Assembly: GCA_951406725.2 (NCBI GenBank)
Contig: OX597828.1
Coordinates: 76,942,001-77,006,000 of the forward strand
Source of the DNA: Octopus vulgaris
Taxonomy: Eukaryota
Direction of reading: 5' to 3'
Length of the DNA: 64,000 bases
Part shown: positions 752-58,279 of the stretch, piece by piece
Position numbering within the stretch: the stretch's first letter is position 1
Layout of the letters: each line of letters opens with the position of its first letter
Made by a program: the position numbers and the translations under genes
The notes under the pieces: generated by a model
The model's input: the letters and a program-made list of their open reading frames with translations, nothing else
What the model was told of the DNA's origin: nothing
Databases searched by the model: none

Positions 752-795
752 TTACAGTTGAAAAGGTCTCAAAATGACCGAAACCGGTACTGAAA
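752..795 (+). ncRNA. Minimal type I hammerhead ribozyme (U3-A8 core variant), Penelope/retrozyme type
   Basis: ttacag-TTGAAAA(758-764)-GGTC-tcaaaat-GACC-GAAA(780-783)-CCGG-TA-ctgaaa. Helix II has 4 bp, helix III is the palindrome ACCGGT, helix I pairs 5 of 6 bp, and the cleavage triplet is GUA. Confidence 0.75.
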
Positions 796-878
796 TGTTC
801 ACTATAAAATTATTTTAGCATTTTCTATTTTTTACTTGTTTTTTCATATATATCAACTCGTGTGTTCCTTTTCACCCT

Positions 879-1149
879 TATACATATATATATATATATA
901 TACCATGTATATTATGTATATATATATATATATATATACATAATATACATGGTATAAATATATATATATATATATATATATATATATTTATACCATGTAT
1001 ATTATGTATATATATATATATATATATTTTATACCATGTATATTATGTATATACATAATATACATGGTATAAATATATATATATATATATATATATATAT
1101 ATATTTATATCATGTATATTATGTATATATATATATTATATATATATAT
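879..1149. repeat. (TA)n tract with an interspersed motif (TACCATGTATATTATGTA) in both orientations
   Basis: Forward copies near 901, 991, 1032 and 1108; reverse-complement copies near 937 and 1052. The same motif recurs at 3716-3855. Confidence 0.9.
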
Positions 1150-55060: not shown

Positions 55061-55884
55061 ACAAAGTATATACATGAGCATATGTGTGTGCATGTGTTTA
55101 CCGATATAAAAGTATGTCGATGGATGCAACTACACGTTCATATATGTGTGTCAATAACGGGGAAATGTTTGTCTGTATATAGAAATAGGTAATTGTGAAA
55201 AGTGTTTTATTTCTTCTGGGGTGGAACTCTGTAATAAAGTGAATATAATTCACATTTCTGAAAAAAAAATATTAAGTTGGAAGTATATTGACGCTGGAAA
55301 CAGTCAGACACGTCTCGTCTTGCGTTATTTGATCGTGTTACTATGTGTTTGTGGATGCAAGGAAATGATATATACATACACACATTTATACATATATATA
55401 TATATATATATGTATATATGTATATATATATATGCGTGCATGCATATGCTTGTGTATAATTTTACAATGTGCTTGTATGTGATTGTTTGATTGTACGCAT
55501 GTATGAATGAAGCGTATGTGTGAGTGTGTGTGTGTGTGAGAGAGAGAGAGAGAGAGAGTGAGAGAGAGAGGTGGAGGGTCAAGAATAGATATAAACGTAT
55601 TACTCCATAGGTAGATGGACATTTTCCCTGTTCGGCAGTTTTTCTTCTTAATATATTTATCAATTCTCAGTATAACATTATTTCACAAATTCATTCTTCT
55701 CTCTACTAAGCAAGCTACCTGCCTAGCTGTGTCTATATTTTATATATTTATGTATGTATGTATGTATGTATATATATATATATATATATATATATATATA
55801 GGTGTATATATTAAATTTTATATATGTGTAGATGAGCATGTGTGTGTATACATATATATACCCATCCTATCATCACACACTCAC

Positions 55885-56070
55885 AGAAATGAGATAAAAG
55901 TACAACAAATATTAGTTTTAGTTTTACGCTCAGGAAAATTAAAAGAACTCTTAACGTTTCAAGGTTACTGGAGTTGAGGAAAAAATGGGAAGAAAAAAAA
56001 ATAGACGTATCTAAATTAACGAATTATCGCAGGATGAAATGACTGGAAAACAAGGGTGAAATATGGAGGT
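55885..56070 (-). mobile_element. Decayed copy of the hammerhead-bearing family
   Basis: acgctcaggaaaa...ttaacgtttc (GAAA-CG-TT on the minus strand). Confidence 0.5.
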
Positions 56071-58279
56071 GTATATATATATATATATATATATATGGAA
56101 GAAGGTTTGAAAGTGCAATTTTAAAAGATGTTTATTTACTTTACCGGTTTCACTTTTTAGAAAAAAAGATTGTCAAAAGATTGTAACATTTAACAGCTTG
56201 GTTGTCTTAGGTACTGGTTGTCACAAAATACTACAATACATATATACATTCCTTGATAACAAGAACATGTTAAGAACAGCTTACAAGGGAAAATCTGGGG
56301 AAAATATAAAAAAGTTTAACAAGTTCATTAAAATATTGGGCACTAACCATTTCGTTCATTTTTCTTTTGTTTCTATTAGTATATCCCTTATAACCACGAT
56401 TAGACAAGAAACCTTTACGATTCTCTATAGATATACATTTATATCCTTTATTAAATCTAATATTAAATCTGATATACTAAAAATACCTTTTTCTAGACAT
56501 TTAATATTTAAGTTAGTATTTAGCGTCGAAAGATAATAGACATACTCCTAACCTTCTTGCATTAAATCAGTCTTTCCAGAAATTCCTCAGTTGATCTAAT
56601 ACTCCAAAATTAATTAAGTCCCGAACTGTTATGAATTTTATCAAAATATATTTTTTTTAATGTTCTAACAACTTTTTAAAGCAACATTAACCAATATAGA
56701 TAGCTATTTATTTGTACAATTAGTAGCTCCTGCTATAAATCTACTTTAAAAATGGACTTTATGCAGTTTAGGAATCCATATACATACATACACACACACA
56801 CACATGAACACACACACACACACATATATATATAATCACTTATATCATTTGAAAAGAAAAAGAAAATGTAGCCACGACGTAGAATATAGTGTATATATTT
56901 CGTCAAAGATAGAATTTCTTCAATTGTTACTCTGAGTTTAGCGTTGCCCACTTTTCGATAATCAATAAAACGTATGTGTGAGTTAAGGAACCAAAAACAA
57001 GAGATTCTAAATTTATGTGTGAATATTCATGAGTATAGTTTTTTTTCTGTACAAATATCTCCATCCACACACACACATATATGTGTGTGTGTATGCATAT
57101 ATGTATATATATATATATATATATATATATATATATGTCTATATGTATATATATATAAGTATGTATATATATATATATGTCTATATGTATATATATATAA
57201 GTATGTATATATGTATATATATATGCATGTATACATATGTACAGATATATATATATATATATATATATATATGTCTATATGTATATATATATGTATATAT
57301 GTATATATATATATATATGTCTATATGTATATATATATAAGTATGTATATATGTATATATATATGCATATATACATATGTACAGATATATATATATATAC
57401 ATATGTGTGTGTCTGTGTGTGTGCGCGTGTGTGTATAAATATGTCTGTATGTGTATACATATAATATATAATTATTTACATGTATATTTGCATGCATACA
57501 TATATCTGCGTATACGCACCCATCAACGCACGCACACACATACACACACGCGCGCATATATGTTGTACATATTATACACTGACGTAAACAGATTTTTTTC
57601 AGTGTTGTGAAAGACGAAGCGAAGAAGTAGGTCCTCCACTTAAATGTATACACATGTAGAACTACATTAGACTTGTATGTGTGTGAAAGTCAATGTGTGT
57701 GTGTGTGTGTGTTTGTGTGTGTGTGTTTGTGTGTGTGTGTGTGTGTGTGTGTGTGTTTGTGTGTGCATTGCTATGCTTATTTGTATATCCGTGTATTTGC
57801 CTGTCTCTTCTTATACTTTGACTCCTAATACACCGCCGTAATTTGCCGAAGGCTTTATAATTTTCCGAGTTAGAGAATATTCGAAAACCAATCGAAACAC
57901 GTTATTTTACTGTTTTGTATTTTCCTTCTTGAAGTAATGTCAGTTTTGCGGCTGGCGCTGTTGTTATTTGTGGCTGTCTAAGTCTGATTCGAGATGTTCG
58001 CTTTGTTGTTGTTCTGGGCTGTGTGGAAACCTATTTTGCTGGTTTGTACGCCAGAGACATTATTGCCTTTTGGTCCCATATTAAGACGTGGTTTGCACTG
58101 CAATGAAGAGTATTCAGTTAAAGACAGGATTTAAAAAAAAAAACATAAAAATGTTCATTAATTCATAATTGTGTTAAATTTCAATCACGATATCATAAAA
58201 CCAATTTAGATTTGCTATTTCAAATGTTATGAACTGACACAATCCTCGCACTGGACAAAATGATTAACTACATTTCTTT

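Follow-up and report, generated by a model that had tools for sequence, protein, structure and literature searches.

Hammerhead ribozymes are a described feature of Penelope-like elements (PLEs). According to Cervera and De la Pena (2014, PMC4209133), most minimal hammerheads are single and probably derive from truncated PLEs, thousands of heterogeneous ones occur per genome, and PLE hammerheads include U3-A8 core variants as well as pairs on opposite strands spaced 100-700 bp; in that study, minimal hammerheads of PLEs showed no cleavage as monomers and low cleavage as dimers. Head-to-head pseudo-LTRs of PLEs have also been described (PMC3846280). For PLEs, Craig et al. (2021, PMC8557442) reported truncated copies in inverted orientation, tails, and (TA)n as the target, and this paper together with its supplement documents the 3' hammerhead, the (TA)n target, and inverted truncated twins, with one Octopus element among the examples. 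Hydra-1_Obim from Octopus bimaculoides is a Hydra-clade PLE that targets (TA)n and carries its hammerhead 35 nt from the 3' end (PMC8557442). For Anolis Poseidon, Frangieh et al. (2024, PMC11167929) presented a mechanism for insertion into AT-rich DNA that also accounts for two alternative 3' ends (tail) beyond the hammerhead; they found that the hammerhead cleaves only with the element's protein and that in vitro insertion does not require it. Among retrozymes, an active axolotl form has U.U at the base of helix II (PMC7229834; bioRxiv 10.64898/2026.07.22.740005).

The window, i.e., the whole stretch of 64,000 nt analysed here, holds eight proposed hammerhead-bearing or half-hammerhead pieces (sites A to H) besides the partners of inverted twins. 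Seven of them, in 60 kb, are supported, none at Rfam thresholds: A, C, and H are complete, B and D are partial or decayed, F and G are halves, and E is unsupported. The self-cutting RNA motifs of the window are largely real, and their folds, the twins, the staggered ends, the TA adjacency, and the conservation of family B are observed features. In our reading, the motifs likely represent the pseudo-LTR region at the 3' end of PLEs of five or more families (A, B, C, H, and the D/F/G group) in an octopod-like genome, with a mechanism taken partly from published PLE biology. PLE membership of these families is probable; they are new octopod families within an already described class, and the pattern itself is not new. 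The families may be catalogued already, and our literature searches found no paper devoted to octopod hammerheads. They add octopod families to the known class and show how dense such ends can be.

Complete hammerheads at sites A, H, and C

Site A (752-795, +) was predicted by the initial annotation as a type I fold, and is indeed a complete minimal type I hammerhead according to descriptors, Rfam HH9, and two-strand folding, with the U3-A8 variant UUGANAA as its core. The motif spans 758-789(+), including the core (758-764), a 4-bp helix II (765-768/776-779), the palindrome ACCGGU (783-788), the GUA site with cleavage base 789, and a helix I of 3 bp followed by a mismatch. (TA)n begins 95 nt past the cleavage base, and the 3' part of the element reaches the TA tract at 879. 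In the folding model, the two-strand minimum free energy structure (MFE) is a double hammerhead; the local Rfam scan matched HH9 with E 0.0066 (19.7 vs a gathering score of 52 bits).

Site H (56096..56179, -), recognized by descriptors and folding, consists of a complete hammerhead and its 3' part. An isolated 3' half had been reported at about 56142(-), which is revised here to a complete motif at 56176-56142(-): the U3-A8 core (56176-56170) is followed by U.U and a 6-bp helix II, ACCGGU, and a 3-bp helix I, with the cleavage base at 56142 and (TA)n 47 nt off. The motif is weakly folded, and its MFE is not a hammerhead.

The main copy of site C (21442..21563, +) was identified by descriptors, folding, Rfam, and the Hydra-clade rows of PMC8557442. 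The type I fold assigned to 21442-21531(+) is confirmed as a complete hammerhead at 21448-21525(+), although it is not the MFE (-16.0 constrained vs -20.8); the cleavage base is 21525, with TA at 39 nt, and the copy ends at (TA)n at 21564. It has an exact CUGAAGA core, a helix I of 6 bp, ACGAUCGU, a palindrome of 8 nt, and a long helix II with U.U at its base. The four best motifs had been said to share a CUGANGA-type core; of these four, only site C has it literally. Reading the U.U as decay was considered and dropped after the same U.U was found in Hydra-clade rows. The local scan matched Rfam Hammerhead_1 with E 0.04 (18.2 vs a gathering score of 34 bits). An inverted 5'-truncated twin lies at 21255..21414(-), with 58/59 nt identical to 21505-21563; its 3' tail is ~100 nt longer than that of the main copy and ends at (TA)n 21233-21254.

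Directly 5' of the cores of A (708-757) and C (21419-21447), a U-rich run plus CAG on the (+) strand resembles a splice acceptor. For Drosophila virilis Penelope, an intron has been reported to end at helix I (PMC4209133); a splice site is not claimed here, because the U-rich flank belongs to the published PLE hammerhead consensus.

Site B and its family

The main copy of site B (3874..4265, -) was delimited by folding and self-comparison and begins ~9 nt 5' of the core. Its hammerhead (4265-4162, -) has a helix I of 8 bp, a helix II of 5 bp plus a long hairpin, a 12-nt near-palindrome (4182-4171), and cleavage base 4170, with TA at 298 nt. The type I fold proposed at 4162-4265(-) holds in that the three-way fold is the MFE (z -3.5, reached by 0/200 shuffles) and the family is large, but the core of the window copy is reduced to CUGA, with 3 bases missing. 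The two-strand MFE is again a double hammerhead in the folding model. The 3' region contains an 89-nt partial tandem (3874-3962 = 4040-4128), followed by (TA)n. Self-comparison and a matching contig identified an inverted 5'-truncated twin at 4272..4579(+), which retains no more of the hammerhead than its 3' half, is 100% identical to the main copy over 282 nt (4272-4553), differs from it in the 3' end point, and abuts (TA)n 4580-4601. A 424-nt contig of run X2 shows no difference to 4272-4579 and then extends into the whole core.

The family B stretch was found, whole or in part, in 20 of the 24 listed runs, which come from 8 studies. The four runs examined yielded 4,153, 12,703, 1, and 9 family B contigs; abundance is given as contig counts, and contig depth is not taken as copy number. 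Among the 14 loose ends listed of 174, all six that reach the core keep its 7 bases whole, with A, U, or C at position N7. One variant converts an A-U pair of helix I to G.U, and the 40 variant rows listed (of 41) leave GAAA, GUA, and the 3' helix I strand unchanged. The centre of the palindrome changes from AT to GC at both positions (86 and 84 X3 contigs; other arm 82 and 82), both changes probably lying on one molecule, judging by the matching counts and one loose end. By folding logic, these central bases have no possible pairing in a monomer hairpin and pair in a dimer, so the change may be taken as suggestive of dimer action; it is suggestive only, because the AT-to-GC change may be one inherited event. 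The covariation expected among copies is thus seen at the palindrome centre on both sides, but possibly as a single event. No match to the family B motif was found in viral contigs or in metagenomes, and the one match in bacterial genomes (L002, 24 nt) was rejected as chance, its flanks having no similarity.

Some families, chiefly B, might be non-autonomous, i.e., short ORF-less hammerhead elements, either SINE-like or retrozyme monomers, that depend on PLE proteins acting in trans for their copying. We consider this a tentative possibility. Family B reaches very high abundance in two organisms and is young (308 nt match an independent contig exactly), its main copy starts ~9 nt 5' of the core, and no ORF was found; non-autonomous PLE derivatives and solo monomers have also been published (bioRxiv 10.64898/2026.07.22.740005). 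However, loose ends show other copies running on 5' of the window copy's start, which marks that start as a truncation rather than as the end of the family; in addition, D has ~170 nt more 5' sequence, and the window holds no same-strand hammerhead tandem. The non-autonomous reading can apply to one family while the truncated-PLE reading applies to others. A narrower proposal, rather doubtful in our view, sees in B an octopod element that is young, non-autonomous, and present in very many copies, and whose long-armed hammerhead is unusual, with a 12-nt helix III palindrome self-complementary even at its centre; if true, covariation in natural copies would be evidence that two RNA molecules cleave in trans, and the element would serve as a robust substrate for probing what PLE hammerheads do. 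With its long helices and covarying palindrome, family B is a good test case for dimer action and for the purpose of PLE hammerheads.

Decayed and rejected motifs

Site D (19736..19864, -), a decayed minimal hammerhead with its 3' flank to (TA)n, was characterized by descriptors, folding, and flank alignment. In the motif at 19829-19864(-), where a type I fold had been reported, the core (19860-19854) with U4C, an extra A, a 4-bp helix II, and ACGU can be traced, but helix I barely pairs (U-A, U.U, U-A, G-C) and the MFE is not a hammerhead. TA lies at 99 nt, and ~170 nt more sequence extends 5' of the site. Site F (50998..51101, +) is a 104-nt copy between (CATA)n and (TA)n, cut inside helix II and placed by its kinship with D, and site G (55850..55965, -) is a decayed 3' half with a flank related to D and F by alignment, for which no 5' core was found in our search. 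The 3' halves initially noted at about 50999(+) and 55952(-) were both recovered in F and G, as kin to D. The 3' flanks align with each other (D-F z 6.0, 0/500 shuffles; F-G z 4.4; D-G z 3.0), whereas A, B, C, and H are mutually unrelated (28 site pairs tested); the description of the motifs as sequence-unrelated therefore applies to the latter four and not to D, F, and G. The D/F motif had no match in viral contigs, and the single metagenome match (L001) was rejected, as it is prokaryote-like and without similarity to the window.

The weaker hammerhead suggested at 11741-11786(-) (site E) was rejected. It has an exact CUGAUGA and a 4-bp helix II, but neither a palindrome nor an in-register helix I, its nearest downstream TA is 1,939 nt off, and it fits chance. 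The AT-rich 2.2-kb stretch that holds it (9810-12031, -) gave nothing with Pfam. By eye, fragments in this stretch look like a decayed pogo/Tigger transposase.

Comparison with described elements and proposed mechanism

The window motifs are similar to the minimal hammerheads of PLE pseudo-LTRs (PMC4209133) in being type I with a short helix I and a palindromic helix III, in the U3-A8 cores of A and H, and in the extra base after A9 and G10.1-C11.1 of D. They also share the U-rich 5' and AU-rich 3' flanks, mostly solo occurrence, opposite-strand pairs, and many unrelated families per genome. Unlike those published, A is without the extra base, and B and C are not minimal, because they have 8-12-nt palindromes, a long helix II, and A-U or U.U at 10.1/11.1 (PMC4209133). 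The extended helix II and palindromes in B and C are, in our view, modest variants.

A hammerhead near the 3' end, the (TA)n target, and a helix III of ~4 bp (site C) are shared with the Hydra clade (PMC8557442), in which U after the core faces U before GAA in 14 of the 26 listed rows, as in C and H; H has this U.U in common with the clade and a helix III of 3 bp. However, the hammerhead sequence of Hydra-1_Obim is absent from all window sites as compared by eye, and B and C have a much longer helix II (spacer of 59 nt or more vs loops up to 10 nt in the listed Hydra-clade rows). Four short window motifs had no match in the supplement of PMC8557442, in which line breaks can hide matches. The tails at B and C are ~100 nt vs the published 30-40 bp. 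Unlike Anolis Poseidon, whose ORF starts in helix II (PMC11167929), frames from or after the window hammerheads close within ~26 codons, as judged by eye. The motifs also resemble animal non-LTR retrozymes, which are non-coding repeats with type I hammerheads and tied to PLEs, but retrozymes are defined by head-to-tail hammerhead tandems (PMC7229834; bioRxiv 10.64898/2026.07.22.740005), and no same-strand pair of related hammerheads was found in the window.

The assignment to PLEs draws on the arrangement of the copies, among other features. A type I hammerhead lies near the 3' end, complete in the window at A, C, and H, and complete in other copies of B. Inverted 5'-truncated twins occur at two of the eight sites (B and C) as head-to-head pairs inside (TA)n with unequal 3' ends, and the two alternative 3' ends in each pair are ~100 nt apart. 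Inverted truncated twins with staggered 3' ends in (TA)n are a PLE signature, and partial tandems like the one at B are also described for PLEs. The insertions lie in microsatellites, which obscure any target-site duplication. Linked RT/GIY-YIG ORFs, another part of the initial proposal, were not found in the window: Pfam detected no PLE RT or GIY-YIG remnant in 150 of 269 unmasked peptides, only LINE domains and a weak ARS2 match, and 12 read-through frames gave no PLE domain and one weak unrelated match. Upstream of A, one frame contains a PELN-like stretch reminiscent of a GIY-YIG end; it was rejected after 0 matches in 1.84 billion proteins. The missing PLE ORF is expected, because the copies are 100-400 nt. 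The initial picture of multiple non-coding, hammerhead-bearing retroelement families at (TA)n is thus borne out as to several families 5' of (TA)n, no ORF in the window, and scores below Rfam thresholds, but the label "non-coding" is not secured, since short solo ends are also what 5'-truncated autonomous PLEs leave.

It is very improbable that the long-armed B and C are ends of Naiad-type PLEs, whose hammerheads would have been missed since published descriptors allowed short spacers only. Naiads do have a (TA)n target and inverted structures, and those of Octopus vulgaris and Euprymna are marked HHR_half_core, with halves 35-50 nt apart (PMC8557442). However, cephalopod Naiads are described in that paper as long inactive remnants whereas B is young, C fits the Hydra-clade pattern, and the window motifs had 0 matches in the supplementary file with Naiad sequences, again with line breaks that can hide matches.

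In the preferred reading as 3' ends of truncated PLEs, an associated RT/GIY-YIG ORF, the enzyme that selects the target, and the cleavage step would all be as in published work. By this analogy, the GIY-YIG endonuclease of the element would nick (TA)n, and reverse transcription would begin at either of two internal points ~40-300 nt 3' of the hammerhead. Most cDNAs would end early, so that a short piece with the hammerhead is all that remains next to the TA run, and template switching might produce an inverted truncated twin or a partial tandem. A tandem transcript would be cut by the hammerhead after GUH as a dimer, in which two palindromes form one helix III, probably with help from the element's protein. 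Dimer-type cleavage appears reasonable as a model; the solo, partly broken copies in the window are probably inactive relics, for which cleavage in cis is unlikely.

Chance expectation, Rfam, and (TA)n adjacency

All descriptors were written after the sites had been seen. The descriptor following published rules matched A, C, and H in the first 60,400 nt (shuffle mean 0.14; at least 3 matches in 1/500 block shuffles). Five descriptors run on 45,441 unmasked nt, with 17,977 nt of the window masked as simple repeats, gave 1, 2, 3, 1, and 3 matches, numbers reached by 0, 3, 25, 27, and 0 of 300 shuffles. The counts of the loose descriptors are not significant, because 25 and 27 of 300 shuffles reach them, and the enrichment over shuffled controls asked for at the outset is thus present for the tight descriptors but not for the loose ones. 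Relaxed matches at 18143(-) and 13453(-), with TA at 339 and 3,543 nt, were taken as chance. Against the hammerhead consensus (core CUGANGA or UUGANAA, GAAA, palindromic helix III, UH), A, C, and H are exact, D has one mismatch, the B copy is deleted, and E is without the palindrome.

In the Rfam scan at gathering score, no match was found in the window, and the E-value scan gave microsatellite matches and no hammerhead among the 150 of 355 rows listed. Local scans of five sites found no hammerhead at B, D, and H and weak matches at A and C; the proposed check with Hammerhead_1 accordingly yielded one weak local match (C), beside HH9 at A.

That the motifs are merely chance folds in AT-rich, repeat-rich DNA is scarcely credible overall: the loose-descriptor shuffles, the unreached gathering scores, the fit of E to chance, and two GAAACGT halves belonging to a SINE-like repeat speak for it, but tight descriptors (0-3 of 300 and 1/500 shuffles) and the family B core kept with N7 free refute it for A, B, and C, while it stands for E and perhaps G.

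All three complete motifs (A, C, and H) are within 100 nt of (TA)n. Among palindromic 3' halves, 5/13 have a (TA)5+ run no more than 100 nt downstream vs 6.7% of positions (p about 0.001, with C and its twin counted separately), and 8/13 have one within 300 nt vs 19.9% of positions. The claim that each motif lies just upstream of (TA)n is upheld by this excess but fails for E at 1,939 nt, and the adjacency is not specific, because a LINE and a SINE-like family of the window likewise abut (TA)n.

Other repeats in the window

The DNA of the window is of animal type, and simple repeats make up about 18 kb of it. A 5'-truncated LINE with an open 819-aa RT frame (RVT_1, E 1.9e-31) occupies 1150-3685(-), inside the TA tract between sites A and B; the flanking TA tracts (879-1149 and 3686-3873) have the same interrupting units, and a decayed relative is located at about 4836-5005. 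A LINE fragment with zf-RVT lies at 34274-35618(-). Its protein (34277-35287) has 11 relatives, among which an Argonauta hians protein (61% identical) is the only eukaryote named; another comes from a Herbaspirillum MAG (bacterial), possibly host contamination. At 59049-60375(-), a LINE whose endonuclease looks restriction-like is represented by its 3' part, which adjoins a perfect (ATT)n (60376-64000), and a 221-nt piece beside (TTA)n (45555-45775) is 97% identical to it. We take this LINE to be of the R4/Dong type.

One SINE-like family, with copies 70-90% identical, is present at 16509-16912, 18877-19109, 27012-27128, 33257-33481, and 38337-38560, with further copies, likewise 70-90% identical, at 44268-44736, 45341-45444, 53243-53864, 58251-58536, and 13568-13665; the spurious hammerhead 3' halves at 44285 and 44516 both stem from this family. 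A second family lies at 21071-21226, 28978-29117, 29756-29908, and 37676-37838, where three of the four copies are at most 33 nt from a TA run and one directly adjoins site C. Both presumably resemble Octopus SINEs; together with the Argonauta relative of the LINE protein, this leads us to take the host for an octopod.

At 51159-51705, imperfectly matching inverted repeats (about 81%) lie close to short TA runs, together with a tRNA T-loop-like stretch; no hammerhead was found there, and ARAGORN found no tRNA. Another inverted repeat pairs 8215-8281 with 8407-8474, at 82% identity over 68 nt, with the arms 125 nt apart.
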